A DNA stretch of 64,000 bases from a virus (lineage: Duplodnaviria; Caudoviricetes). A program made the position numbers and the translations under genes. This document shows, piece by piece, positions 19,934 to 43,194 of the stretch (its first letter is position 1; every line of letters begins with the position of its first letter). A model generated the notes under the pieces. The model ran no database searches. It had not been told where the DNA came from and worked only from the letters and a program-made list of their open reading frames with translations. The stretch lies in the IMG/VR virus record IMGVR_UViG_3300033463_000049, positions 38,217-102,216 of that record; one strand, written 5' to 3'.

Positions 19934-22900
19934 ATGAAAAAACAAATATATAACCCTAGATATCAACAAGGTGAAGCGATATTGTAGAACCTGCGGAGCA
20001 ATAAAGTCCGCAGGTCTTACGCTTCATATGCCCCTGTGTACGAAGGCGTTATATCTCCAATAGAGTATGAGTAGAACGACAGCGCAGCGCAATACGATTC
20101 TAGTGGAGATGTTGTAGCGGAAGACAAGGGAGGAGTACTTTCCGGAATAGGAGAGTTTTTATTTGGAGATTATCACCACGCTGCAGATAGATTTGCGGAA
20201 GCAAGTTTAGCAGACTCGTGGAGATTGTTTCACGAAAAACGTCTGCAGGCAGAAACTACTAACAAATTAAATCTGGTTTCAGAAGCAGAAAGTAAACTCA
20301 GTGAATTAAAACGCGCTGAAGATTATGCGGATTCTGTCGATAAATATAATAATCTTCTACAGTAGTATTCTAATGCAATAAAGTAGAACAACTTAGAAGG
20401 CGCGCGCAACATAAAGAGTGAAATAGATAAGTGCATAAAAGACATCGTTTCTTTTTAGACCGATATAAAATTTAAAGGCAAAAACAGCGATATAAATGTA
20501 GATTTGTTTTTCGATCCGTCGAAAGATGAAAAACAAGGAAAGTATATTAGAAACGAGGTTCGTAGAAACGTTTTAAAAGAAAACTTAACTTGGGATAGAA
20601 GAGAGCCAATTGGTACATCGGCTGCGTTATCTTGGGTTTAGAATTTGTTTGAGAGCGGTCAAATGGCCATACAAAAGGCGATTTCTCCAGAACAAGCTAG
20701 AGGAAACTTTACAAAAAAAGCAATCAAATAGAGTTTATCTGGAGACAGGTGGACCGATTATTTATTCGAAGGGTATGACGAAAAAGATGGTCCAACTACT
20801 ACGGATTTGCGAAACAAGATACAGCCTTATAAAAACTATTGGGAAAGACAGTTAGAGAATCGAAAGATTGATGCTATTAAATCCAGTATTTAGTATAAAA
20901 ACGGAAACTGGTTGTTTGATCCTCAAAAAATAAATCCAAAGTTTAGACAATACTCTGAAAACAACGATTCTGGTCTAATTGGAGGATTGCTTCCAGACCA
21001 ACTGCTGTATTCGTTTTCTGAACTCGGAAGTTCTTGGAGTGATTGGCAAAATATGGCATTGATGACAATGTCCGATGTCGCAGCAGGATATGGTGCAAAG
21101 GTTCTTACTAATTTCGCAGTAAAGAGAAGTCCTTATATAAACGCAGTTTTAGCAATAGACCAATATAACAGATTGAAAACTGCGGGAAGATTTGCAGAAG
21201 CTTCTAAACTTGAAAAGACTGTTGCCGCTGCAAAAAAACTGGTACCACAGGCCGTAGTATCCGGAGTAAATTCAATAGAATCGGTAGGAAAAGGGGCCGC
21301 TATGTTGGCAAGTACATATTTTATAAATAGAATGCGTCAACATGAGACCAATTCCGAAGTAATGGATGCCTGGTCGAATCGTGTTTTACAGAATGCGATG
21401 GACAAAAATGCAGATATGACGAAAGTGCTAAATAACACAAAGGAATATCTGACGCAAATAGGAATACCTACCGAAAACATGACAGATATAGACCTCGTCC
21501 AACATGCTTTGGCGTACAACATACCAAGTGGAGATTCTACTTTCGAACAAGAAAAGGAATCCGCACGCAAGGGATTGGATAAAGTCTACAACGAAAACAT
21601 GTCACTTGCAGCAAAGGATTACGTAGAGGCCTTGCCGTTTTTGTCGTTTTAGGGGTCTGTTTTAAAATCAATAGGAAACGGGTTTGTCAACAAATTAAAA
21701 GATAGAACCTACGCAAATGTGGCGAGGGGTATATTGGACAAGACCGCAGAAAGAGCTGTATCTAAGACGTTTTTAAATAGCAATTTATCTAGCAAACTGG
21801 CATCCAAGCATACAGCAGATTACTTAGAGAGAGCTTTAAAAAAAGCTGGTTGGGTAGGTACTATGGAGGGTATCGAAGAAGGTCAGCAACATTTATTGCA
21901 GCAAAGATATTCGAGAGGCGAGTATGATGATTATAATACTCCTACGTCTCAATTCTCTCTTCCGTCCGTATTTAGAGACTTTAATCTTGGTACAGATGCC
22001 GTCGGTGCATACTTGGGAATATTGTACGGCGATCCAGATAACGGCACTCCAGAATTGCGCAGGGCAATGCAAATAGGTGCAGTAGCTGGCATGTTGGGCG
22101 GCGGATTCGGCTTGGGTCTTGCATCAAACGTCCTTCCGTCAGAAGGTAGAGATAATATACGAAATTTAACAGCTCAACTTAGAAGTGATTTTGCTATAAA
22201 CAAGATTTTGGGAGATTCTTACGGCACAGCTCAAGACACTGCTCACATGAACATGTTTTATGACGCCATGTAGAAACACGGTGTTACAAGGTAGCGGTTG
22301 CAGCAAAGCTTGGAGGATCTTCGACAATTTAAAGGGGAAAACGTCACCGATGATTATATTTCACGCGATGTAGAACTATTAAATGATGTCTGGTACTATA
22401 CGAACAGTGACAAGTTTAATTCTTCTATGAAGGACAGGAATATAAAAAAGAACTCTCCGGAATATAAAACCGAGGTTATAAATGCCGCCAAAAGAAGAAC
22501 TTAGGTACGAGAACAGCTTCGATTTATACAAGAAAAGCTCAGAGAGCAGGATGGAATGAAAAATTCTGTTCTTAGAAAAGTATTTAATTCTTCTGACGGA
22601 TTTAGTGAAGCCGAAGATCCGGAGGTAGACAGATTGGTGGATCAACTGTGGAAATCATACGACGAGTATAAAATAAACAGAAAACAGACTCGTAAAAAGC
22701 TGGAAGAAGCTTTAAATAACGTTTAGACAAACGAGTATTCTCAAGAATGGCAGTTAAAGAAGGCAGAACAAGATTTGGAAGAGTTTGACAAATCTCAGGA
22801 ACTTGGGTGGCATGATTATTTGGATCAGACCATTGACAAAATGATCGCCTATAGAACTCTCCAAAATGCAGAAATTTTAACAGAAAACCTCACTTCTTCA

Positions 22901-25900
22901 AAGGAAGTTGTCGATACGATTTCTAAAGAGCTCGGATTGGGAATAGAATCCCCGAAAATTCAACCTTATTTGGACGCTCTTCAGTTACAAAAAGACCAAT
23001 TATATAAGAATCTTGAAAATGACGACGTTTATAATCAAAACGAACTTCGTAAATAGTTGAATGCAGCAAGAAAAAAGGGGCAGCCTATACTCCCACTTAT
23101 AGAAAATATTGCGGCAAGAATAGAAAAGAAATATGGTAGACTTCCGTTCTAGGATGAAATAGATAGTATTCAGCAAAATATGCTTTTGAGTAGGGCATAT
23201 TATGATGTAATGAAACCTATTTCTGACATGTATCATACTGGCGAAATAGATCCGAGATTGGCGGCGAAAGCAGTGTCTACTATATCATGGAAGAGTTTGT
23301 CTAAAGAAGAGCGAAAACTATACTTGGACACCATTAATGACGAGCGACAAAAGGATGGTAAAAACCCATTAAATGAAAAGAGTATAATTTTTGAATACTC
23401 TAAGCGCCAAAAAGATTCGATAAAAGACATAAAGGCTTTGTCGGAACAATACGCGAAGCATTTACAAGAACACAAAGATGAAGACGACAGCGGAAATGTA
23501 GATGTAGACGCCGAGGATATGAGAAAGCGCGCCGCTCAAATGCTGATGGATTTCGAACGTTAGAAGTTTGAAGATCTGCGTAGAATTAATCATAGAGAAT
23601 ATTTGCGCGAGGACTCTACAGTTAGTGTAGAAGATGCTGCTAAAAATGGCGACGAAGATGCCAAGCGAGTGTTGCAAGAAAATCTACAAAGTTATTCTAA
23701 CGATGAAATGTCAGATCGCGATGTGATCGGTGAGAGAACGGATTAGATTTTAACAGACACGCCAACAACCGTTTCGACTGACGAATCTCCGCAGGAGCAG
23801 ACAATAACATCTACTGATTCTGGTAGGCCTGTGATAGAATCTCCATCAGACGAATCAAATTCTATAGATAATGCGTCGGCAGAAGGTGAAAATGTTATAT
23901 ATGCCCCATCTGACGAAAGTGGGCCTCAGCCTATCGACAAACCATCTGACGAAAGTGGGCCTCAGCCGATAACGCAGACGCAGATGACGTCTCAAGAGAG
24001 ACATTTGCGTCACTTGTTGGGATATGACGACGAAGAGGTTGGTTAGTATTAGGCGCCGTCTGATGAAAGTGGAGAATAGTCCGTTGACAAATATGACCAA
24101 TATGATACTCGCGACTATATAGAAAAGGAAAGCGACGAAACTTCTATAGACGAGCAGTAGGCGCTAATTGATATAGACGACCACGGATCGTCTAGATATG
24201 ACGACTTCTTGCAAAGTAGAGACGAACGCACAATATAGTCTACAGATTAGATATATTCGAATTTCTTACATTAGACATTCAAATATGCTAACTATGCCGG
24301 GGATGACGAACTTCCGACAATAATAACTAAAAAGATTGTACGTGATGTAAACGGAAATCCTATTGTAAAGAACGGAGAAATTCAGTACGAAGAAAACCCT
24401 CTAAAGTTCAGAAACGGCGCACAGCTTAGATCTGGCGGACAACTCGCTAAAAAGCTTTTGATTCCGGGTTGGTTTGAGAAGGCAGATAAGTATTTTGTAA
24501 TAACTGCTGATGAATCTACTGTTTAGGATATAAAAAATCCAGATAATCTTGTTGTTATAATGGTAATTCAAGACGGAAATGATGCATATTGTACATTCAT
24601 GACAGGTCTTGAGATAAAAATAAACAAGAACGGAGGAGTGTTGTCAAACGGCGAAAAGGAAATTCGCAACAGAATGAAAACCATGTATTATTCTTCGTTC
24701 TATACGCAAGACGATTCTGGTATTACCGAGCATGTTGTAAAAGACGAATATGGAAATATCGATGAAGACGAAGTTCGTCTTGGACGATAGATAGTAATGA
24801 TGTCTCAATATATTGCGGAACATCCTGGAGAAGATACTTCAAAGCTCACGCAAGAAGAATTGTGGAAAAAAGCTGCAAGTTGGTATTCGTCTTCAGATCA
24901 AAAGGTTGTCAACAAGGTAGATTTTGCTGTAAGGCGCTTTTTATCTGGAGATCGCCCCGTATATAGTAATGAGAAAATAGAAGAAGAAATATCTAAACTT
25001 CGAGAGGTAAGAAATAGTATAATAGACGCATGTCTTACCAAAGATAAGTGGGGAAATTACCAATTATACTACGATCCGAGCCAATACAAGTATGTGAAAC
25101 CTTTAAATCCAAGAACTAGTGGTGGTAAGATAAACGACGTTAGAGAGGATGGAAAGCCAGTATTCAGAAAACTTACCGACGGTGGATTTGAAATGAGTAC
25201 CGACATAGAGGAACTCACCAGACAAATAGCCGATGAAGAAGTTATGATAGGCGTCGGTCTCGGTGAAAGATCGTTTGCATATAAGAGCGGAGAAAAAGCT
25301 CCTATTGCAAAGCTGGATCCGGAATCTACCGGCAATTATAATGAAGCTGGTTACGGACACTCTGGTAAAATCTATTATATCGCAACTACTGTAAATGGCG
25401 ACAGGAGAGCTATTCAGCTTTTTGAAAAAAAGTTTAAAGACAGTATAGAAAAAGTTGAGGCCGAGTATGTAGAAGAGTCGATACTCCCGAACGGAAAGAT
25501 TGCCGAAGGAGAAACTCCGACCATTAGTGAATTTATATTGAGACTGGTCACCGATACTATTTCTGACGACGTATTCGAAGGAATGCCTGTAAGATATATA
25601 CCGCAGTTTAAAAAGCAGTTATTGAAGATACTTGTAAATGCAGACCATAGTACTTGGGTAAGGGCAAAAAATGAATCGAAACAACAGCATTTTGCTCAGA
25701 AGCAGTTCTTTTTTGACGACGAAACGGGTGATTTGATAATCGCACTGCCGGACCAAAATGGTGTATATAAACACACCAAGTTTAATATAAAAGATATAAG
25801 GTCTGACGAAAATGTGCGAAAAATCATAATAGCAGCCATTTCTAATAATTTGCACTGGAATACAGATAGGACAATGATGGTTGACATGATGCCTGCGGAA

Positions 25901-28900
25901 TTCCTTGAATGTTTGCGTCAAGTGTTCAAAAACGACGATACGCTGACAGAGTACAAAATTGCCGGCATTGATGACCTCACGTTTAAAAAGTCTGATCTAT
26001 TTAAAGACGACTTATCTTATAAAGAGGTATCTTTGGCAGCATGGATGTTTGCTACCGGAAAACTGTTAACTTCCGTGGGAGATACTATTTTCGACTCTCC
26101 GTTTGTATATGCAGACGGCGCAGTGTCAGCAGATCCTGCTGGAAATGTATTAAAGGAAATAGAGCAAGGTGCAGAATAGCGTGATTCGAAAGAATTGGAA
26201 GTAAATAAACTTGAACGTCTGCAAGGTCGTTTCAACGAGTTTAATGCAAAGCGCATAGGAAATTTATTGTACGTCCAAGACAAAGAAACTAGAGAACGCC
26301 TTACGGAAGGAAAGAAGATAAGAGATTTTGCACTGTTTGACATAGATGCAAAAATTGAAGATTCTGACGAGTAGGTTACTAATAAATTAAAAGAATCAGT
26401 TAAATCATATACTGATTTTCTAAAGTCGGAGTACGGTCTTGATATAGAAGACAAAAATATTATCTATCCAGATGAAAGCGAATATTCGGCTGTAAAAAAC
26501 AGACAAGCATTATTTACTGCAGTTTTAAATAGAAAAAACAAAGTAATTGTTTCTGTGGACAGCGTCGATACTGTAGAACAAATGTCTCAAAACGACGGAA
26601 TTCCTGTATCTGGAGTATTCTCGATAGTAAAGCAAGATGGAACACTCGACGTGGATTCTGCTAAGAAGTGGATAAAAGACACGCTCGGATTGGATAATTC
26701 TCAATTCATTGTTACAAATGGTGTATTAAGAGCAATGGATGGTAGAATTGTTTATGGCGTAACGAGTGTTGCTGTAGATACACTTAATGATTTAGTAAAG
26801 GGTGTAATAATGTTGCAAAAAAATAGCGGAAGAGGTCTTCATTATCATGAAGCTTTCCACTATGTAAATTTACTTTTGCACACGAAAGAAGAAAGAGACG
26901 CCATTTACAACGAATACATGGATTTGCACCCGGAAACAAGAGGGTATAAAAACAAAGTGTTGGAAGAACTTCTTGCCGACGAATTTATGCAATACTGTGC
27001 CGACATTGACGCATGGAATGAAAAACAAAAAGGCCGAAATAAGATTAGTAGATTTATACACAAGATAATAAAAGACGTTTTAGATTTTATTAAAGCTTGG
27101 GGTAAGCAAGATCTAATTAAAAAGCTGTATAAAAGTATACATTCCGGTGGTTATAAAGGCAGGTTGATGGATCAATATTCGGTCAACGAGTTTAGAAAAG
27201 CTTATCCGTCCGGCGCAAATGGCGGTATGTATATACCCGGATAGAAAGTAGATGTAAAATTTAATAGTATATAGGACGCAAGAACGTTCTTCAATGTGGC
27301 AGAAAACGTTGCACACGCATTTTTGGATTTTGCAAACATAAAGAAAGTCAGCGATGTATCCGGAATAAGTGCATCTACGTTTGATAAATTCTTAAAGAAA
27401 CTGGAACGAGATAACGAAAGAACGGATAATCCGTATATTCAAGATGTAATTGATAATTACGATGCTTTTATAGATACTATAAACAGTTTGCTAAGGAGAT
27501 ATGGAGTTGTTCCTAAAAACAAAACCGCACACGGAAAGAAACAAATAGCTGACGACGATGCAAATGAACGCAGACAGCCAACAGGAGAAATTGCACAACT
27601 TTCTGCGTTGTATGACAATTATACTGTAAGCAAAAAGGACAACGTTGCATTTAGAGCAAAACTCTTTTTGTGTCAAGTAAAGGAATCTCATTTTGTTTAC
27701 GACGAAAATCAAAAACAAAACGTACTAAAACTTACAACAGATCCTGTAACAGGCTTGTAGAAGTATGTTTCTTATGACGACTGCTGGTAGATATTGACAA
27801 AGGAGTTAAACGGAGTCGATAGTTATGACGAACTTCTTAAAACTGTAAAACGTTTGTCAAAAACAAAAGCATTTTTTGCAGAAGTTTACAAAAATCTACA
27901 GTCGATTTCCGGAGATATCGAGCTGGAGACGCAGATATTTAATACTGTAAACAAGCATTTGACAAAAGTCGCACAGGCTCAACTTTAGGATAAGAAAAAA
28001 TTCGCAAAGAAGTCATACTATAGCGATGGAACAGAGGCGACCGAGGATTATACTCCAGCAACTTCAATACAGAAGACGTGGGATCAGAATAAATCTTTTG
28101 AAATAATTAATGACAATACACTTAAGGCTAAGAAAATGTTGCCAAGAGATTGGTCAAAAGATTTATTTGCCTCTCCGCTCATAACGTTTAGTAACGGAGA
28201 ATATCGAATAAACAGAACATATGCAAAACAACTGCAAGACGAATTAAAAGAATTGAAGTCTGTCATGAGAATGTAGGATTCTTTGACTCCTGTAGAAAAA
28301 GATCAAATTTCTCAAAAGGCTTTCCCAATGCTGTTGTCCCTGATATAGAAAATGTCAATACCTTTCGACGAGGCAGTGTTGACCGAGTACATACAAATGC
28401 ACATCGACAAACAAACTCAGGGTTCAGAAACAACTAATAGATTTAAGAGTAAATACAAGAATCTAAACGGCGGAAAAAAAGCCAACGACCAAGACACAAT
28501 CTCTTCAGAAAGTTTTTATGACGCAATGAAGTAGGTTTTATCAGATCCTGCTGCATCGAAAACAAATTCTGCAAATATATCGTTCTATATAGATACAATG
28601 TTCAATTCGAGGTCTGGCAGTATTGTAAAAATCGGCAAGAAGAAAATGATGGCAGTTGGCGTCGAAGGACACCGATCTAAGCACAATCTTGACGAATTAT
28701 ACGAAGGATCTGCTGGTGAAATTGAAATGATGGCTGTCGCATACAACAATATATATCCCTCTTCTAGAGAATTGTCTATAACTGGACCGGGTGGTAATTT
28801 AATATTCCCAGTTGGCGAAAACAATTTTATGTCCGATATTACTAGATGGATTAATAAAAACCACGACAACATTATTGAAAAACTGCAGAATACTCCGTAT

Positions 28901-31900
28901 GCAAGGAATTCGAATGTACTAGAGATTGCTAGAATATTGACTCAAAGCGGAAGACTTGGAAAGTCGTTTGAATTCAAATTAAACGTTTTTGTTGGATTGG
29001 AAGACGAGAAGTCTAAGAAGGGTGTAGATTATTTTGGAGTCAATTCGCTCGAAGACGTTGTTGCCAAACTGATGATGATGAATAGGTCTATTGCAGGAGG
29101 AAAGAATAAAGGATCTGATATGATTATTCTTCCGACGATGGCAGATAAAAAGACTTATTACGCGCTAGAGTTAGTAAGTAAGACTGGTGAAGATTATGAC
29201 ACGTTCAACATGCCACACGACCTTCTTATAAGTGAGCCGTCAGAAGAAAATGAAGGTGAATTCTTTGGTCATCCTAATTTGAATGGTGTTCGAAGATTTT
29301 CTAATGCGACTCTTGATAGATTTGCTGCATATTTTGAAGACGAATTGAACAGTCTTGAACAATATTATTCAAAAGAAAATATAAAGGCTGTAGTAAACAA
29401 TCGACAAATAAGAAAAGCTAATTTCCACGGAAAAGTAAAGAACGGAAAAATGGACTTCTCTGGAAACGGCGGACATTTTAGATACTTTTATGGACTAGAA
29501 TATCCTGTCGAATACGGAGAAACGGTAGGGGACTTAAACTTAAATCAAGTTCTTGAATGGGAATACATGCGCGAACAACAAGCCGGTGATCCACTTTTAG
29601 GTGACGGCGATTGGCGATATAGAACTGATTTTGACGAGTTAGACGGATTTGAGGGAGTAAGAAGACGACTAAAATAGATCCGACAGTATTTCTCCAATAA
29701 AGATGTATTGCGACACGCGATAAATAAAATGTTGTTTGCTAGAATCGACGAACAGATGGACGCTTTTTCAAGACCGGGAGAAAATCAGTTAATAAAACTT
29801 CTGTCTTACGAAGACGTGTTTAACAATCCCGGAGTAGTTGAAACTCATTATGCAAATAGAGCGATTCCAACTTAGTTGATAGACGCATATGTTCAGAAAT
29901 TCAAAGCCGTCGGAATTGACAAAACAAAAGACGGAAGTGATATAAACGCCTCCGACGCATATCATAATTCTGCTTTGGCTGAAAACCTCGTTTTATCTGT
30001 CGTAGGCAACTTTGTAGCCCAGTCTATGATTTCTGTAATAGAAATTGAAAAAATATTTAGCGGAGATCCGGCGTTTTATAAGTGGAAGTATTCGAGAAAG
30101 AAAGAGCGTAAAATAATTGGCGATAGGGCTTATGATTTTGAAGTACTCCTTGAAAAGGATACTGATAAAATCAAGCGTCTTGGTGCGTTATTGTCTCCCG
30201 GTTCCGAGTTAAGAACCGACTTCTCTACCGAGGATTATCAAAAATTTCCGTGGCTCAAAGGTACAAAATATGTAAACGCTACTGTACGTGATGTAAAAGC
30301 AAAGTCTATATTCTTAGATGAAACTAGGGATTTGTTCACAAGACAGATGGTAGCTGACGTCTTGAGAAATAGTAAAAATAATGCGGATCTTGATTACTCT
30401 GGTGTAAAAGGAGAAAATATATCTTCTAAAGGTTCTGAATTTGCAAAACTTCTTACAAATTATGGCAATGAAGTAGAAGTAGAGTTCAGAGGTAAAAAGT
30501 TTAGAAATGCTGAACATGCTTACCAAACTTGGAAATCTGGAGAATTTGATGAAGTTGCGTATAATAGTAATGCAAAAAAGCCAAGAGGATCTAAAAGTGC
30601 AAATACTACTCAAGTAAACGGTCAGAGTACTAATTATTGGATAATGGAGGAAATATTAACTGAAAAGTTAAAACAGCATCCAGAATTAGTAAAAGGTATA
30701 ATTGAAAGAGGCGGAGACGCTTATCTTTTTAATTCTACACATAATGTCGTCGGAGACAGATTTTGGGAATCTTCCGGTCAAAATAAGTTTATGTAGGCTT
30801 TACGTAAAGCGTACAATATAGTAAATTTAGCTGACAATGTTAATTAGAAAGAAAGAAACGAAATTAGAGACGAACAGTTAAATCAACGTATAAATAAAAT
30901 ATATACAGACGAGGCTGCGTTTAAAGAAGAATTCAATAATCTTTCCGATGCACAAAAGAATTCCATAACAAAAGCTGTTGCTCAACAAATAAAACCATAC
31001 TCCGATATAACAGTATCTGATGCTCAGGTGTTGATAAGACCTCATTTATATCGTAAGATTAGAATGATGCTTGGGTAGTGGTCTGTAACACCTATAAAAA
31101 TCACATATAAAGATTATAAAGGCGTTATTCACGAGACAACTTATAGCGACGACGAGGCTTATCGTATAATAGAGAACGATCCAAACTGGATGATCGATCC
31201 AGAAAAGGCCGCAAAAGTATCTAGACTGTAGCTCTTCCCTCTAAAGATGACGTATTTTAAAAACGATCCAAGGGAGCTTAATCCAGGAAACAATATTGCC
31301 TACGGTTTGTATAATAAGATGGCTATATTCCCAGCTTTTAAATTCTTATTTAGAAGTAAGACTGGACGTCAGATATATGATCGCATGAATAGGTATGAGG
31401 ATCCATTAGACATGCTGACATTTGAATCCGCAGTCAAGGTGGGATTGAATCAAGATATATATTCTCCGTATAACAGTAAAACAGAATCTCTGGATAACTT
31501 CAACGAAGGTTTGAATGAAGAGTCCGGATGTGTTTTGGATGATTCCGACAACGAATCTTGGATAAAGACTGGTGAAGGACTTACTGTAGAAGTTCAGGAT
31601 TTAAAAGGTTTGAGAATGCAGTTGAACACCGAGGCGCATACTGACGAAGAGCGTGCGATAGGTACTCAGATGTTTAAAATCCTATTTGGAAATATATACG
31701 ACGACGAAGATTATGTTATCGATAAAGAAGGAAGACCTTCTAGAAAAGGTAAAGAGATTCGTGACGACATAATGAAGTGCATTAAGAGTCTTACGGCACT
31801 TGGTGCAAACCACATCAAAAAAATGTTCTACAACGAAGATGGTAGAACAATAAATAAAGATGCTGTATCAAGTTATCTCAACACCGTAATCGAAAATAAC

Positions 31901-34900
31901 AATCTGAGCAATACCGTTACTGAAATTCTATCACAAGGCGGCACTATTGAATCTCTGATGTAGAGAACTTTGTTTGAACACAGTGTATCTTCGTTAGTAA
32001 ATAGTCATGTAATAGATATAGAAACTAAAGGTGGTAGTGCAGTTCAGCAATCTGTATTTGGTTTTGTAAGTTACGGAGCAAAGAATGTAAGATCTGAAGA
32101 AACCTACGACGAAGAGGGGTATCGTGAATTAAACAATGGCAGAGAATTATCTTGGAATGAAAAAGACGGATCTATGGAAGTGATGCTTTCTATGAACTTC
32201 TTTAAATCTGTTGTTCCAAAAAGTTATCAACGTTCTTATGATGAAATGAGACAATGGTTGATTGATCACGATATCATAAAGGGATGGAAGAGAGCTAAAA
32301 ACCCTATATTACAAAGATTGAATTTGCTTATAGATAGTCCTGAATATACTTCTGGTCCTGAATTGTCAGTAACTACAGAAGCTGTCTTTGATGAATTACA
32401 TATAAAGAAATTTAAAGATATAATTTTAAACAAAGACAAAATTCAGAAACGATTGTTGGCATTGGGAGGAAAAAGTCTGATCGATGAAGTTAAAAACCTC
32501 TTAAATGCAAATGAACTGCAGTGGGATATGGAGATTCCGACAAACAAGTATGTATATACAGAGGAATCTAAACCGAAACCGTTTGGTGTAGGTTATCGTA
32601 TTCCTACGCAGGGCCTTTCTTCTACTTTTGCATTTACTGTCGCAGACGTTCTTCCAGAATGGGTTGGAGATACTATTATTGTTCCGAGAGAGTTTACTGC
32701 GCAGACCGGTTCTGACTTCGACGTTGATAAATTGTTCTTAGCGACGTTGTCCTACAAGAATGGCGAATTGGAGTAGATGGACGGTAACGATTTTTCGAAC
32801 GCGTCAAAGGGAGCCGTTGCAAACAGACTTCTTAAAAACTACATAGATGTAGTAACGGACATTAAAAACCGAGCAAACGCTAGAGCTTCTATTGACGTCG
32901 TTACAGACATTATTCAGGATAGTACTCTTCCGGCCATTAGAGGCAAGTCTGATAAATACGCCGCTTCCATGTACGAATTGACTCCTTATTTCCAATTAAG
33001 AAGAAAGTAGGAATTTTCTATTGGTAAGAACGGTATTGGACCATTTGCCCTTAACATTACAAATCTTGCACTTACACAGTATGCTCACGTAAGTATCGAT
33101 TTTTCTAAACTTCCGTTTAAACTTGGAGCATTGGATAAGGTTGTTGGAGAAGATGGAATCAGAATTTCCGACTGGCTTTCTGCTATGGTCAACGCCCATG
33201 TTGACGTTGCAAAGGACCCGTACGTGTTTGATTTGAATGTGAACCAAGCTACTTATAAATTTGTAAATCTTTTGTTGAGAGCTGGAAAGGGAGAAGCTAC
33301 GTTCTTGTTTTTGGCACAGCCTGCGATTAAATCGTATGCTTCTGCATGGAATAACTCGCAGGGTCTTTATGGAAATAATCTACAATACGACGATAAAAAA
33401 CCAGAAAGGTGGCAACTGATGAACAGTTATATACAGTCTTATGCCAACAAGGCGAAGGAAGTTATAGATGCGATTCAGGATGAAAAGCAGAGAGATCAGT
33501 ACACCGAAAAATTGAAAAATATAATTGAAGAAAAGGATGTTGATTGGAATTCTATATTTGACAAGTAGAAAGCAAAGCGAGCATTATCTGAACAAAATTC
33601 AGTATTTTCTTTATTATATCAAATTTTAGCTTTAAAAACGTTGGACAAACTCGATCCGTATGCACAAGAGCTTTCTGATTTGGTTAAAGTATCTCGCATC
33701 GACACCAAGAAGTTTGGTAATACTATAGCACTGCAACGTAATTTCATAAACGAATATATGAGATTTAAATACGGAAAGCGTGATGTTACGTGGTATAATA
33801 CCGACGGAAAAGAGATTGATGCAAGAGAAAGATATTTCCAGGAAACGTTCCTTGAGGATAAATTATTCACTGCTACAAACCTAACTAGAGATATTTTATC
33901 AACACAAAGTATAGTTTCTTCAAAGCTTTTTGGAGACATTATGACTACGATATTCTCTCAAACGTTTGGTGCAAGTGAAGAAATTAAAGACGGAAATGGA
34001 ACACCAATTCCGGTATACGATAAGGTTTATGACGAAAAAGTCGTTCAGGAAGTCTCAAATGCAGCAGAAAATGTTATAAGGCATAGATTGTTGTCATTCT
34101 ACTCCAAAGGAGTTAATAGAGAGTTATTCCGCAGAGCAGACGTCTTAGAGGAAAATCCAAAGACTTGGAATGAGATAGAAAAAGATAATGATTATACCGG
34201 CCCTATTGATTTTACATTTGGAGGAGACGTCGAAGTAATGTAGAAAAACTTACATAGATTATGGTTCGGAGACAGTTCTTCAGAAGATTATTATGAATAG
34301 AATAGTATATTCTCAAATATAGCGTAGATTATAAGCATAATAGAAACTTCTGATCACGAATCTAGAATTACTAAATATAAAGATCTTGTAACAGAGTCCG
34401 GTAGAATTAAAAACGAGTTGTTGAACTATTTAAAACCGCAGCCTGCAAATAATAAATTCTCTATACCAAGAATGCTACTTAGAAAAACAAATCGCAATAC
34501 ATTCACAGACGAAAAGAATCGTTTAATATCTGCATTTCACGATTTGTTAACCAGTGACATAAAAGGAATAAGAAGAATGGCGCGCGATTTGGCAATATAC
34601 GCCTATTATTCTACGTATAATACAAACGCTCCGAACGCATTCTTCGACCTCGTTCCGATTGAGTATAGAAAATAGTACGACATGGCCATTGCGGAAGGCG
34701 TAAATCAACAAGAGGGAACTTCAATATTTGCAGTTTAGAATGATGACGAAATAGATTATTCTGTAGAATGTAGTCATATTTTAGATGCAATTTGTAGGAA
34801 TTTCTACACGAACGACAATATAGTTCCTTTATACGAACATGTAGATAAATATAATAGTAAACATGTCGGAGAAGGACCTGGTGAAATCATAAAGAATATT

Positions 34901-36175
34901 CAAAACAGTAAAATCCCAATGTTCTTACTTACAACTTAGCAGTATAAACCATTCTTAAAGATGAACGTAAATGGGGACATTGTTTTATACAGGAAAAAGT
35001 TGAGAATATTTGCAGAGACTGATTCTGGAAATCAATACGGAAAGGTTTGGAACCTCTATCTACCTATATCTAAACTCGGAGTACATAGCGGAACTACACA
35101 TCAATATGAAATGCATGCGTCATCCAGCGATACTTCCATGTTTGAAGACAATAAGATTCCGGAGAACTGGAGTAGAAATGCTGTGGGACAATTTGTAATG
35201 AATTTTATAAATGAATCACAGCAAAGAATAGACAACAAGTTGTCTAAGCGCAAACAGGTAAAGACTATTAAATATGTGAAAGTAAAATACGAATAGGTTA
35301 ACAGAGTAGAAATAGAAGAATCCGTTTCTAATGACGTTCATCTTAATGTTGACCGCGGATTTAATGGATACGACACCGTAGTTGTAGAAAACCCAGTTAA
35401 TTTTATAAAAGACAATTCTAATGAAGTGTTTGACTTGTCGAACGATTCTTTTAAAACTCAACTTGAGACATTAAAAGAAAACAATTAGTATTCTGCAGAA
35501 AAGGATGGTATTAACATAGGGTTTGTAGGTACTCCCAACTTAAAGATAACTAAAGAAGACGTGACGCAGTATGTATACGACGAAATCGAAAAATATACCG
35601 CTTCACACGAAGGTACGGATGAAGCTTCTCGCAAAGCATATGGAGAAAGTTTGTTGCAGGACGAAAAGTTAAATGACAAAGTTCTTTATAATAAGTATGT
35701 CAAGTATGCAAAAACCATATTTACGTGGGCTCAAATAAATTCTATAAATATAGACACAATGTATCTCGAAGATACTCCTGTCGGTCGTGCTTTCAACGAC
35801 GAATATAATAGAGTGTCTACTAGATATGATTTTGCAGAAAACACTACTTTGGTGTTAGCAGACAAACCCGTTTCAAAAGAAGTTGTTGAAAATTCGCCTG
35901 CCGTAGAAAATAATACTTCTGTAGAAAAACCTTCTGTTGTAGATAAAACATCAAATGTTGATGATATACAAAATAATGCAGTAGAAGGTGCACAGAGTAT
36001 TGATAAATACGTAGACAAAACTGACGATTATTTATATGACGAGCCTACTCCCGGTAAACCTGTTAGTGTTACTAAAGAAATGCTAGAACGTTTAAAATAG
36101 TTAAAAGCTTAGAATTCTGTAATAAATAGTGAATCTTAGAAAGGTTCTACAGAATCTTATAGCGATAAATGTTAA
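19934..36175 (+). CDS. Giant virion RNA polymerase polyprotein (code 15, ~5413 aa): ejection-protein-like N-terminus, zincin, two-barrel RNAP
   Basis: More than 20 track ORFs share one frame; the gaps I read contain only TAG. GYRIPTQG and QTGSDFDVDKL (DFDVD at 32714-32728), VDVAKDP, HEAFH zincin at ~26846. Confidence 0.9.
23853..24075 (+). repeat. PSDES(G) peptide repeats; 26-nt direct repeat with 36-nt period (23906, 23942)
   Basis: CCATCTGACGAAAGTGGGCCTCAGCC twice, plus two degenerate PSDES copies. Confidence 0.85.
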
Positions 36176-36180
36176 TAATT

Positions 36181-39100
36181 ATGTTTTGCCCAAATTATAG
36201 AATAAAAGATGTTTTTAATCGCTTCAACGAAATGATTGAAGCGTTGGGCGGAAAACCTATGACTGAGGAAGAATTCAGGTCCAGTGAGCTTAGAAATAAG
36301 CGTACTGGGCTTGATTACTCAGCAATGGAATCCGCGTATAAAGTATACCATAGAAATGGTGGTCATTTCCTTGATGAAACTCCACAGGGCAAACCATCAT
36401 TATTATTTAATACTCTGTTAGATCATTTTGGAAATAGAGCAGAAGCTATAGCAGCTAAATCTAATGTATATTCTGATGAATTCTTTAACTGGTTTGGAGA
36501 TTGGACTAGGCGGTATGGTATTGTTGACGATTCCGTAAAATATAATATAATAACCCCGGAAGGTGAAATAAATTGGGATTATTTTGAGTCTTTGTTAGAC
36601 AAATACCACAATAAGCAACCCGATTCAATGTTTGCTCACGGTAGGTATACGTTATCAACAAGACCAGAAAATCATTTTTCTGAAGAAAAAAATACACTAA
36701 ACCATATTAAGTTTGTAACTCAGTCGATGTTAAATTTGCTTGAGGGCAAATATGATATGGATCTTCCGTTTGTATCTGAAGCAAGAGCGTCTTTAAAGAA
36801 TCAAAAAGATCTAATGATACTTGCTGCAATGTTTCATGATGCAGCAAAACCGTATAGACACGGGGATATTCATGGATGGGAAAGTGCTGATATATTGCGT
36901 GATGTATTAGGTTTGAATTATGGCAACAGACTCGCAGAATGGGCGGTAAGACACCACATGCCTATGCCATTCTCACATAAAGCTGATTTTAATAAATCAA
37001 ATCCCGAAGCTTTAGAAGTAGCTAAAAATATCGCAAGAGATGCAAAACGAGTTGGCATTGATGCAAATACCGCGATAAATGCGTGGGTTTTAATAAACGC
37101 CGCCGATGTAATAAATGGAAGAGAATTGTCTGTAGAAGATAACTGGGCTAAAAAAGCTGCTGCAAACGGTCCTACTAGATACGGAGACGATTTATCTGTA
37201 AAAAACGTGCTGTCAATAGAACTCAAAGAAAAAGTAGAACTGCTTAAATGGGCATTTGACCAGATAAAAGACGAAGATTTCGGCGATACTGTTTATAATT
37301 ACAATAATCAAGAACGATTTGATTATCAAGCTTTTCCTGAAGGCGGTAGAGAAGATAAAAAACTTCCATATTTAAATAATGCGTCAAATGTTTCTAAAGT
37401 TGTAGATGAGAACGGAGAACCTTTGGTTGTGTGGCACGGATCGAAAGCTATATTTGATGTGTTTGACCCGTCTAAATCTGATTCTAGATAGTATTTATCA
37501 ACTACAGTAAGAGATGTGAATTTTTTCTCGTCAGACAAAACTGTTGCTAATTTTTTTGCTGTAACAGAAAAACAATCTATGGCTTCTGCAATAAGCAAAA
37601 GTATTTCTATTGTGTTAGACGCCTTTAGTGGAGAAGAAGTACCGGAAGAAGAAATAGACGACGCTATATGGACAGAAGCTGCAAGACGCACTGGTAAATC
37701 TAAAGAGCAATGTAAGAATTTTTGGGAAAACGAGGTTCCTAAAGAATATAAATTACACGACGAATTTGGATATTCGAGAATGAAAGATCCGGATGTAGAA
37801 AAATATAAATATCCCGTATATTTATCTATGAAATCGCCGACAATAATAAATGCAAACGGGTAGCGCGCAAACGAAGTATTAGAAAATAATAAACAAATTA
37901 TCGACTCAAACGATGAAATAATCATTAACAATATTAACGAGACTGTTGGAAAACAAGAAACTGCCACAGACTATCTAGTAAGAAACTCAAATCAAATAAA
38001 GCACGTCAAGAATCTCGGTACGTTTGACCCAAACAATCCTAATATATACCACATATCTGCAAAACCAAACACTCTTGCGTATAGGCTGAATTCTACCAGA
38101 CTTGAATCGTTTTTTGACAACGCGTCTTTAATATAGTTGCTAGACGGCAAAAGCGTGTCGATTTCTAATATTGTACCGCATCTTTTAAATACTGGCAGTT
38201 TTGCTAAATATAATCTACCGTTGGCAAAAGTAGCTCAAAAACACAACATTCCAGTAATGTTTGCATCGTTGCCGAAAGGTAAACCGATGGCCACTATAGA
38301 AACAGATGGAGTTGTATATATATAGATAGACCCTGAACAAATCACTCAGTATACTACAGAGACTGCATCTGAATACGTCTTGCATGAAGTTGTGCACGCC
38401 CTTTCTGTAAAAGCGCTTAGAAATCCAATTACAGAAGAAGAAAAAAATTTCTCTACCGCCACTATCAAATTGTACGACATACTTGACAAACTTATGCCGG
38501 AAACTGATTATAACCGCGCAAGTATGGATAGCGGTGGTTATATACTAGCCGATGTATACGAGTTTGCAGCAGTATTTGCTACAGACAAGGATGCAAAAAT
38601 GCTGGTGTATCAAAAGGCGCTGGACGAGGACAAAAAGGGGAACAATAAGGTCTTCTTGAGACTTAAATAGTTTATAAATAGCTTGTCTAGACTTTTGTGG
38701 AACAAGAATGTATTTAAAGGATTGAAATCGGATGAAGTAAAACTTTATCAGAAGAATCTCAATAACTTCCTTCTTACAAGAAGAGTACAAGAATATATAG
38801 ATCCTGCAGAATTGTTTAATAACGTATTAGAGTCTACGTATAACCCAGCTACGAATGATTAGCAGACAGCTACACTTAGAGAACGTCTCACCAAACGCCA
38901 AGAAAATGCAATAAGACATTATGTTGCAGCTACTGGAGAAATTACTGATGCTACAAAACACAAAAAACTCTGGGACACTAGAATAAAAGTGTCTGAAGCA
39001 CTGGAGAAACGTCTTGCGGCAATCAATTCTTCTACCTTAGACAATGACCTTAAAGTCAAAGCTAAACAAATAGTAGATACACAACTTAGTCAATTTAAGA

Positions 39101-42100
39101 ATAAAACAGTACCAACCGTGGTTGTATTGCAGTCATTCTTATAGCAGACGTTACCCCAACTTCTAGAAGATGTAGAATCAGTGAGAGCTGTAAGCGATAG
39201 TACGCATTCTTACTATATGTATAACATGCACGATAATTTTGGAGCATATGCTGCAATATTTGATATGCTTAGTAAGGATGTTAAAGATCATTTCTTTAGA
39301 GACGAGCTTGATGAAGAATTTAAAGGAATAACTACTATCGATAAATTGTCTATAACAAAAGATATAGACTCTATGATTTCAGTAATCAACGATGCTGCAG
39401 CTACTGCCCAAGATGGAGTGAGATATATGTATAATATTTTGCTCAACAATGTAAGAAGGGATTTGGCAGATCTCAGTACTGAAATAAACTATAGCGATAC
39501 TAAAGCATTTTTAGATCAAATAAATAGTATAGGCTTCGATACCAATTCGTTTATAGATATACTTGGAGCTAAAGACGGAGCAGAAGATCCACTCCTTAAA
39601 TCTATAGTATATTTAGTAAACAAGGCTTTACGAAAATCCAAAGATCAGACTAGAGAAATAGTTACAAAACTATTAAAGTTAAAAGATAAACTTGCTCCGG
39701 GAGAATCTTTATTGACTTTATACGAAGTTGACGAAAACGGAAGAACTACTCAATTCTTGGTAAGAGATTTAAATTTTGGTAAGTTTTATAGGGATTATAA
39801 AGAATTTCAAGAGTCTCTCAATAAGAAATACGGATTGCCAGAAGGAAATAGGTCTGCCCCATCTGATGTAGAAGCTCGTAGAAAGTACAACCAAGACAAA
39901 AATAAATGGCTATCGGAACATTGTGAAAGAAGATTTGTTTAGAAATATTATGATGCGTACGCAAGTCTTTCGGACGATACATTGGAGCAGTTGAATGCCA
40001 TACGTACTGCAATATCTGCAATAAAATATGAAGCTTTCGACGAAAACGATAAGATGTATCATTATGATAGACTTTCAGAAGATCAATGGAAAAGACTGCA
40101 AGGTTTATATATACAAAAAAGAGTTCTTTCTTCTGATTATACTATCTACGGCGATTTAAAGATAGAAGGTACAGATCAATATCGTTGGGCAAAAGAACTT
40201 CAATAGTTGAATGAAACTTTATACAATAAGACCGACTAGGAAATAAAGTATGCAACTGAACTATGGGAAGCAGAACGAAAAAGGGTGTTAAAACAAGCTG
40301 TTGATAAGTATACTGTAGATGGAGAAACAAATCTTATTGCTGTAAAACGTGTAATAGATAAATGGGACGAACGAAATTCTAAAAGAGTATTCAAAAGTGA
40401 CGACGAAGGCCTTCTCATATTTAATTTAATCAAAGAAGAGACTGAAAAGAATGTAGGATTCGAAGAACCTGTTTACGAATTAAACGGAGATCAGGGTGCT
40501 GCTTATCAAGCAAACAAAGATCGTATAAATCAGATTATAAATCTATTTAGAGATTACAATACAGGTGAGCCCAATTTGGAAGTAATGCCTGCGCAAGTTA
40601 AAGCTAATCTTAGGAAACTTGAAAAAGAGAATAAAAAGATTAGACAAGATGCTATTGCTGGAAATAGAGATTTGATTCGTAAATCAAAGGCTTTCAGACG
40701 AGAATACCGCAAAGTATTTAATAAATATCTGAAGACAGAATACACTAAGTACTATAGAAAATTACATCCTGTCGAGGACATGTATATTACCAGCGGAGAC
40801 GATGTTAGAGTCATCAAAAAACGTTGGGAAACCATTTTAAAAGTAAACAAGGGTTTTGACAAAGAAGGTGTTTCGTATTAGGAGAAATTTACCGAACTCA
40901 TTCCCGGTGATGGATGGATTAACCGAGATGATAATGATCAACTTCTTAATTTAGAATACAAAAAAGCTGGATATAATGTACCGTATATACCTAAGAAAGA
41001 TTTGTATGATAATTCTAAATAGTATAATAAAATAATGTCATCTCCTACATTAAAAGCTGTGTATACAGCACTTGTTGGAGATAAGGAGACTGGAGAAACT
41101 GGCGTATTGTAGGAAGCCAATGCTAAATAGTTTAATAGACAATACCAAGACGATTATTTACTTCCCGGAATTACTGGTTCGATGTGGAAGTATATGAAAA
41201 ATCAGGGAGTATTTGGGTCTGTTACACAAGCTTTAGCATATACTTGTGACCATTTGGGATTTACCCAACAAGGTTTGTCTCAAGATACATCATTTGGACA
41301 GTCTGTAGATTCTGCATTAGAAAGTATTAATGATTTGTACGAAGTAGTTTCTTCTGAAAATCAAGTATTTGGTGGAAAAGCGACCGGTACTCGCCCGGAT
41401 GGAAGACAGTTTAGCATAATCCCTCAGTATTACACCAAAAGACTAGAAGACCCTTCTCAGTTGTCATCAGATTTAATTGGTATCGTATGTAGTTATTATG
41501 AAAACGCTTGTAATTTCGAAAACAAGAGTGAAATAAAGGACTATGTTGAATCTTTAGTTGACGCAATTGAAAATAGAAGATATGAAATCGTCAACAAAAA
41601 TACCGGCAATAGAGAAATAAAAGAGGGTTCGCAAACTAAAACTTTCAAGAGTGCTAAAAAGTTTGTAGAAATGAATCTCTATAACGTTAGGTCCGATAAC
41701 AATAAAATAGGTCTTAATATAGGTGACAGCCGATATGAATTAAGCTTAGGAAAAACTGCTTAGAATTTCTCAAGATTAACTCAAGCTTTAAACCTCGGTA
41801 TGTCTCCAGCCGTAGCGTTAACCGGCTTCTTTACGGCTCAATATACGCATTTAATCAATGCTATAGTTGGTGATAGAGGATACGGAATGAACGAATGGAC
41901 TCAGGCAACAGGAGAAGTAATTGGTCATTATATACGAAACTACGGTGGAATGCAATATGCAAGCAATCAACTTTCTAACGATAAAGTTATGCTTCTTGCA
42001 GAAATGTTCGATGTTTCAAACCAACTTAAGCGCAAATTTAAAAACACAAATAGAAGTCGATTTGTCAGATTTTTAGATAACTGGTGTTTTGGAATGCTTA

Positions 42101-43194
42101 CTGCATGTGACTTCGCATCCAAATCAACTATAATGGTGACTGTACTGATGTCTCATAGATTTATGAACGGTAAATTCATGACAAAAGAAGACGTCTTAAA
42201 TACTCTCGAGGCATCTACTGAAGAAGGTCGCAAACGACTTTTAGAGCAGTGGGAAAAAGGTAAGAATTTATATTCAATATTCTCAGTAAAAGATCGCGAT
42301 TTACAAATAGATAAAGAGTATGCGGAAGCTTTTGAAAAGGTAAGACATACTGTATATAGTAGAATAAACAAAACTGCTGAAAATGCGGACGGTATGGCAA
42401 CTGAGACACAGAAGGCCGCAATGACCACTAACTTCTTTGGCGCAGCAGTACTTACTCACAGACAGTATTTACCACTGATGATTCAACAGCGTTTCTTACC
42501 GATGACTTATGATTTTGATATGTAGATATATACACAAGGTCAATATATAGTAGATTGGTAGTTCTTTAGAAATGTGTGCATATCTTCTGCGATCGATTTA
42601 ATAAAATCAAAATCAATACAAAGCGCTATCAACACGTGGAAACAAAATTATGACATTTTCATCAACGATACGTCTTCTGAGGAAAATTGGAAAATATCAA
42701 GAGCGCGTAAAAAGGCGTTGAAGAAAACTATAACAGAACTTTCAATGTTTTTTATAGCAGTCGTTCCTCTCGTGCAATTAATATGCATGTTTGCTGACGG
42801 CGACGATAAAAAAGATGATTTAGCATTGCAACTCGCCGCATATGTTGCAAGGCGTGTACAATGGGAAACATTCACTCCATATAGAATGAGTGATATTTTC
42901 AACAATGTTAAATCACCTTCTGCACAAACTGGCACGCTCGATAAAGTTTCTAATCTTTGGAGTCAGTTAAGCAGAAGAGCAATGCCTAGAGCAAGCCTAT
43001 TAGACACGTTGCTTGGATTGGAACAAAATAGTGAGTATAATGATATTATAATGAGAGGTGTTTACGAAGGACATTCGCGAATGTATAAAGCGCTAATGTA
43101 GCTTACACCTTATCACAACTTATACGAACAATGGTACGGTTCAAAGCAAAAACGTTCTTATTACGAAAAACAAATTATGCAATTAGATAATTAA
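36181..43194 (+). CDS. Large ejected polyvalent protein (code 15, ~2337 aa): ART-PolyVal with nested HD domain, zincin, helical C-terminus
   Basis: Ten track ORFs in frame; FFNWFGDW...SKVVDENGEPLVVWHGS...NQIKH..NLGTFD; AAMFHDAAKP; LHEVVH; TAA at 43192-43194. Confidence 0.85.

Follow-up and report, generated by a model that had tools for sequence, protein, structure and literature searches.

Inserts in the catalytic barrel of crAss-like virion RNA polymerases (RNAPs) are C-terminal domains of the bacterial RNAP alpha subunit (alpha-CTDs) that are mobile between phages; we put the probability of this identity and mobility at about 95%. We see one such insert in the window, that is, in the whole stretch of 64,000 nucleotides that was analysed, which belongs to a gut/rumen crAss-like phage and comes from the record of a 102-kb virus genome. 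The following features of the window are referred to below.

19934-36175, plus strand: virion RNA polymerase polyprotein of 5413 aa (P0001), an ORF with TAG read as Gln; barrel region compared with PDB 6vr4
30431-30838, plus strand: NADAR-like domain inside the RNAP ORF (Pfam PF08719, E = 1.4e-5, under the gathering cut-off)
32030-32773, plus strand: catalytic (beta'-like) double-psi beta-barrel with the insert inside it; residues 46-256 of the model correspond to E. coli beta' 359-479
32177-32284, plus strand: strand and helical segment directly N-terminal to the insert, the probable equivalent of the beta' dock judging from alignment ranges
32285-32569, plus strand: optional insert with its linkers (residues 4118-4212) at site 1, replacing a loop of 0-12 aa in relatives
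32306-32527, plus strand: alpha-CTD-like folded core, matching alpha residues from about 245 to 311/320 (structure match, leave-one-out HMM)
32591-32614, plus strand: GYRIPTQG motif (sequence; match to 6vr4)
32714-32728, plus strand: catalytic DFDVD motif (sequence; match to 6vr4; bioRxiv 10.1101/2020.03.07.982082)
36169-43194, plus strand: adjacent ORF of 2341 aa, TAG read as Gln, with an ART-PolyVal match (E = 2e-11) and a weak HD match

The polymerase ORF stays open only if TAG is read as glutamine (there are 57 in-frame TAGs); translated with table 11, the RNAP region falls into short ORFs. This explains the nr records named 'DNA-directed RNA polymerase subunit alpha [Crassvirales sp.]', which are code-11 fragments of the virion RNAP and not alpha subunits. 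The plus arm of the window (198-43194) is rich in TAG and the minus arm (43257-63996) nearly free of in-frame TAG; ARAGORN found no tRNA within the window. The barrel region matches phi14:2 gp66 (PDB 6vr4) with E = 3e-22, and this gp66-homologous DFDxD barrel lies within a giant ORF, as expected of a crAss-like virion RNAP. By analogy with gp66 and crAss001, the enzyme of the window is probably packaged in the virion and catalytically active (10.1101/2020.03.07.982082; PMC10172136). The closest named relatives of the RNAP region come from Suoliviridae/Oafivirinae phages, namely cr7_1 (Burzaovirus coli) and a Bohxovirus, which together with the TAG recoding suggests a Suoliviridae (Oafivirinae)-like phage. 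A Bohxovirus record (PV686213) was annotated with the standard code, so that its RNAP appears there as many small hypothetical proteins; its diverged site-1 insert (L241:3280-3560) contains an in-frame stop other than TAG. At four loci the reading frame is broken within the catalytic motif (near L073:3526, L158:893, L149:3280 and L156:3256); these breaks fall at two positions, behind GSDFD or behind GSD, and are consistent with introns in the DFDxD codons.

According to the predicted model, the insert is located inside the catalytic barrel, behind the helical segment and just ahead of the RxP strand. The barrel model aligns with 6alh_J (Z = 4.3, rmsd 3.5, 97 aligned residues; its first strand is poorly modelled), and its residues 103-182 match the alpha-CTD with Z = 8.1-8.2 in the barrel context. 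The insert comprises 95 aa and separates the WLIDHDIIKG helix from the PFGxGYRIP strand; relatives without it have a loop of 0-12 aa at this place, which rules out that the segment is core RNAP in all relatives. We take GYRIPTQG to be the counterpart of the beta' NRAP motif. The alpha-CTD-like residues quoted in a preliminary description of this DNA are indeed in frame at 32297-32551, upstream of GYRIPTQG (32591) and DFDVD (32714-32728). There the domain was described as inserted next to the barrel; the insertion is borne out, but the domain sits inside the barrel and not next to it. Site 1 appears, from the alignment ranges, to be the end of the segment that matches the beta' dock.

When the window insert was used alone, we were not able to find a PF03118 match in Pfam, a significant match in single-sequence searches of Pfam, PHROGs and the PDB, or a homologous protein. 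The NCBIfam RpoA model was matched in its CTD part with E = 0.039; the ESM Atlas gave only sub-0.9 leads, and the Foldseek E-values all exceeded 0.001, with alpha dominating the ranks. Weak matches to CPSase_L_D1 and CDK were dismissed as noise. Among ten aligned inserts, on the other hand, seven match PF03118 (best E = 5.8e-10; 7e-5 for the insert of L001; P0049 is above the gathering cut-off). The RNA_pol_A_CTD HMM, which had been proposed as a check, thus recognises most of the aligned inserts but not the window copy by itself. An HMM built from the other inserts, with the window left out, scores the window insert at 22.0 bits, compared with a maximum of 14.3 in 5000 shuffles, and pinpoints it within the 5413-aa protein. 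All 36 PDB entries retrieved with the insert profile are RpoA, Bacteroidota-type structures coming first (9n9p, 3e-9; P. gingivalis 8dkc, 1e-8), and in a search of 1.84 billion proteins all ten of the insert-column matches that were scanned are PF03118 proteins.

The structure prediction agrees with these results. From a phage-only alignment, AlphaFold2 predicts a five-helix domain (pLDDT 75.6), a compact helical fold of the HhH type, and in a VIA comparison with 48,161 chains the top six matches of the predicted insert are alpha-CTDs. The best of them is 1z3e_B (Z = 8.3, rmsd 2.3 A, 66 residues aligned); Rad51-N, SAM and Y-family HhH domains follow with Z of 4.9 or less. Note that a Z near 8 is modest on its own, but it agrees with the sequence evidence for a predicted alpha-CTD fold. 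The alpha-CTD-like segment of the preliminary description is therefore real, as the leave-one-out HMM, the PF03118 matches of the homologues and the predicted fold agree. Its alignment by eye to the alpha-CTD pattern holds overall, except for the GxKSL match, which was probably shifted by one residue: with the conserved Glu302 as anchor, positions 298 and 299 of the window insert are Ser and Leu. Within the RNAP ORF there is no RNA_pol_L or RNA_pol_A_bac match that would indicate an alpha-NTD, the insert being 95 aa in total with barrel sequence on both sides, and elsewhere in the genome of the window phage there is no PF03118 match. Tandem PF03118 domains (2-11 copies, some fused to TPR repeats) occur in the bacterial proteins P0014, P0047, P0053, P0056 and P0059.

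As judged from sequence comparison, the inserts derive from a Bacteroidota-type RpoA-like domain. The best-preserved inserts, those of L159 and P0005, are 47% identical to the alpha-CTD of Segatella copri, compared with 22-43% for other references, and S. copri is the top scorer of the insert profile among 92 genomes of the Bacteroidota phylum. The 11 phage copies tested, which come from both insertion sites, form one clade (SH-aLRT 99, with 82 columns and long branches), and the tree leaves the donor at the 'Bacteroidota-like' level. Thus the bacterial origin claimed initially holds and can be narrowed to Bacteroidota-like. The domain apparently entered the barrel of TAG-recoded Suoliviridae-like crAss phage RNAPs in one event. 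We did not find a close free-standing relative of the insert. A free-standing phage alpha-CTD as the immediate donor is likewise unsupported: all 11 matches of near insert length resemble the inserts, and each one inspected is a fragment of an RNAP. One record deposited as a bacteriophage (MT839982) contains at L242:446-706 an rpoA CTD 100% identical to that of Segatella copri, followed by an rplQ-like gene, and is probably mislabelled bacterial DNA. The window insert, with 15% identity to the S. copri alpha-CTD, is among the most diverged copies and may be weakened or vestigial. Two further inserts, P0007 and P0028, are nearly unrecognisable (20 and 9 of 1000 shuffles, respectively, score equally high), and their homology is doubtful.

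Three properties of the cassette are absent from the preliminary description: it is optional, it is exchanged laterally, and it occurs at two sites. A long site-1 insert is present in 13 of the 82 barrel clusters and absent from the other 69, in a sample that is biased toward insert carriers; the proposed look at related RNAPs hence finds the insert missing from most of them. For example, the flanks of L001 (cr7_1-type) and L004 are 94% identical in DNA over 6.3 kb, and a clean indel at the insert site separates the two; further pairs with and without the insert are L003/L082, L068/L152, L071/P0010 and window/L072. In two loci (L158:287-556 and L156:2680-2940) the same domain is found in the preceding loop, behind the GGxAxQQS strand, with site 1 empty; these site-2 copies match PF03118 with E = 7e-6 and 2e-4, respectively. 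The two sites are about 250 nt apart, and the searches were anchored on this barrel region; we found no alpha-CTD copies elsewhere in 12 insert-negative phage records. The dock loop also takes up other sequences, as P0029 and P0042 have there an unrelated insert of more than 150 aa without a Pfam match, and L094 and P0020 have short acidic extensions.

The inserts do not follow the phylogeny of their host enzymes. In a quick tree of the RNAP backbone without the insert, the distribution of the carriers needs nine gains or losses, at least four of which are forced by well-supported branches. Insert identity (13-55% among the inserts) is uncorrelated with backbone identity (Spearman -0.07, p = 0.63); for instance, the window and L068 are 67% identical in the backbone and 23% in the insert. 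L003 and L070 share a tract of about 300-335 nt, exactly over the insert, that is 100% identical, while the surrounding 6.8 kb are about 78% identical and the flanks have a dS of about 1.1-1.2. An identical insert tract in diverged surroundings indicates that it was transferred laterally not long ago, through recombination in the conserved flanks. The two sequences come from separate assemblies, and their identity is unlikely to be an artefact of assembly. For this pair we rejected co-conversion from introns at the DFD motif, because the identical tract stops about 24 nt past the insert. Insert dN/dS is 0.12-0.16 (L160/L161, L001/L069 and L066/L069; small counts), above most of the flank values (0.01-0.13) and well below 1, so the insert is under purifying selection.

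The inserts have kept the core of the alpha-CTD and lost most of its DNA-binding face. In 16 inserts, counted in E. coli alpha numbering, L253, L262, S263, V264, L270, T277, D280 (14/16), E302 (15/16), L307 and L312 are mostly kept. The residues that bind DNA in the bacterial domain include R265, N268, C269, N294 and S299 (PMC1874639, PMC5511352); they are retained in 6, 2, 0, 2 and 0 of the 16 inserts, respectively. Positions 266, 269 and 299 are mostly Leu, Val or Ile (299 mostly Leu or Ile), Arg or Lys is found at 265 in 9/16, and G296 and K298 are each found in 9/16. At R265, N268, C269, N294, G296, K298 and S299 the window has T, A, V, A, G, S and L, which agrees with the earlier observation that the DNA-contacting Arg and Asn are replaced (Arg265 by Thr4147, Asn268 by Ala4150). 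Helix 3 is deleted, shortened or rebuilt in most copies; of the 287 determinant on this helix, positions 287-289 are gapped in most inserts and substituted in the window, whose copy also has a short insertion ahead of helix 1. The net charge of the inserts ranges from 0 to -6, and no surface patch is clearly conserved among them. UP-element binding and contact with CRP-type activators by the insert are unlikely. The suggestion that host activators are recruited loses ground as well, because helix 3 is deleted or rebuilt, the DNA face is lost and the enzyme works without sigma.

What may the domain do? Our tentative proposal is that it acts as a protein-docking module, a tether for host factors of the NusA type at the RNA exit. 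The alpha-CTD has entered the barrel and now behaves as an optional cassette, which lineages gain, lose and exchange; a hydrophobic cluster has taken the place of its DNA-binding face, and helix 3 has become shorter. From its tether at the dock-equivalent segment, the domain would hand an alpha-less polymerase a grip for elongation machinery that binds alpha-CTDs, the first candidate partner being host NusA, and in some hosts early transcripts could then differ in pausing, termination or coupling. The dock (beta' 381-414) lines the RNA exit channel on one side (PMC4499122). The RNA path of the paused E. coli complex is formed by NusA-S1 and the dock, and the alpha-CTDs bind NusA near the RNA exit, one at AR2 and the other at the NTD (PMC5842316). 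NusA, which the preliminary description had named, is a geometrically plausible partner for a domain placed at the apparent equivalent of the beta' dock, by the RNA exit. The NusA of S. copri has an acidic C-terminal extension that is AR-repeat-like by eye and has no Pfam match. Docking is favoured because the phage records searched have the domain at two loops of the barrel only, and because a conserved hydrophobic cluster replaces the DNA face. A fixed, conserved partner is poorly predicted, on the other hand, because the host domain is nearly invariant (93-100% identical across Bacteroidaceae matches) while the inserts drift and have no clear conserved patch. That 69 of 82 clusters do without the long insert makes the cassette dispensable, which counts against docking, and the unrelated inserts in the loop mean that it may simply be permissive. 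The more specific version, in which an alpha-less single-chain RNAP has re-acquired a host alpha-CTD at the RNA-exit dock, at two sites, and recruits NusA or the coupled translation machinery, is doubtful at present; if true, it would make the domain a mobile accessory, tuned to the host, with which a viral enzyme regains part of the elongation complex of cells.

The rapid turnover of the cassette can also be read as the trace of a conflict. The injected polymerase would then carry a decoy or self-like shield in an exposed, permissive loop, soaking up a host or rival-phage factor aimed at the alpha-CTD or hiding a loop sensed by defence systems. The gains and losses (at least four and probably nine) resemble an arms race, and the fully identical L003/L070 cassette within flanks of high dS and the lack of correlation between insert and backbone point the same way. 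Phage enzymes that target alpha are known (T4 Alt/ModA and Rac; PMC7824862), and an optional NADAR-like insert with a neighbouring ART-PolyVal and HD is the pattern of polyvalent proteins (PMC5512222). The NADAR-like domain is missing from the loci compared, among them those of the closest relatives L068 and L152, and is thus a second optional insert of the RNAP. However, a decoy should remain host-like, and R265, the target of T4 Alt/ModA, is kept in 6/16 only. ART-PolyVal is moreover patchy across relatives and does not track with the alpha-CTD insert (the complete insert-bearing cr7_1 lacks it and several insert-less genomes have it), so that a functional link between the two was dismissed. 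Altogether, we consider a decoy or shield rather unlikely. Perhaps the domain has no function of its own and is a promiscuous cargo with a stable fold that spares the barrel, tolerated in a permissive loop and spread by recombination in the flanks. Conservation limited to core residues, a dN/dS of 0.15 compared with 0.01-0.13 in the flanks, nearly unrecognisable copies such as P0007 and P0028 and the other inserts taken by the same loop are what one would expect of such a passenger. Yet the cassette persists across backbones of only 41-69% identity even though it could be replaced by a clean empty allele present in the same species, it was recently transferred exactly, and it adds 10 kDa to be packaged and ejected, which makes a passenger unlikely, too. 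Residual nucleic-acid binding is the most improbable of these explanations: a non-specific contact with upstream DNA or exiting RNA would help the sigma-less enzyme to engage its template. The HhH-like fold and the partial retention of R/K at 265, G296 and K298 (each 9/16) fit this idea, and added template affinity could help an enzyme like gp66, which is poor on double-stranded DNA in vitro (10.1101/2020.03.07.982082). Against it stand the nearly complete loss of N268, C269, N294 and S299 (PMC1874639, PMC5511352), the T265, A268, A294, S298 and L299 of the window copy and the neutral to negative charge of the inserts.

Whichever function applies, the insert offers a specific handle on the initiation, pausing and termination of transcription by crAss-like virion RNAPs and on their contacts with host factors. 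We know of no promoter motif or partner of gp66. Since alleles with and without the insert occur naturally within one species (cr7_1-type L001 and L004-type, flank dN < 0.01), the effect of the domain is directly measurable.

Compared with the RpoA CTD (PF03118; 1z3e_B, 1lb2_B, 9zum and the Bacteroidota-type 8dkc_A and 9n9p_A), the inserts share the predicted fold (Z = 8.1-8.3), the core residues and the LSV motif, and the best-preserved ones share the flanking helices of the Bacteroidota type. Whereas the RpoA CTD hangs on the alpha-NTD, the phage domain occurs in single copy within a beta'-like barrel and is tethered at both ends; it lacks the DNA-binding residues, has a shortened helix 3, evolves fast and is optional. 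With phi14:2 gp66 (6vr4; 10.1101/2020.03.07.982082) the window enzyme shares the single-chain, two-barrel architecture, GYRIP and DFDxD and the absence of an alpha subunit, but gp66 and most relatives have no insert at the loop that carries it in the window. An alpha-CTD in a crAss RNAP was not described in the main texts searched, which include few subscription papers, and the main text of the survey of polyvalent proteins does not mention alpha-CTD or RpoA (PMC5512222). Like the polyvalent virion-injected proteins (PMC5512222), the alpha-CTD-bearing RNAP is large, probably injected and equipped with optional accessory domains (NADAR-like, ART-PolyVal and HD in this module), but in this case an accessory domain lies inside the catalytic barrel: a module of the cellular RNAP, its DNA binding lost, appears to have been grafted, at the place of the dock, into a viral enzyme with two barrels.
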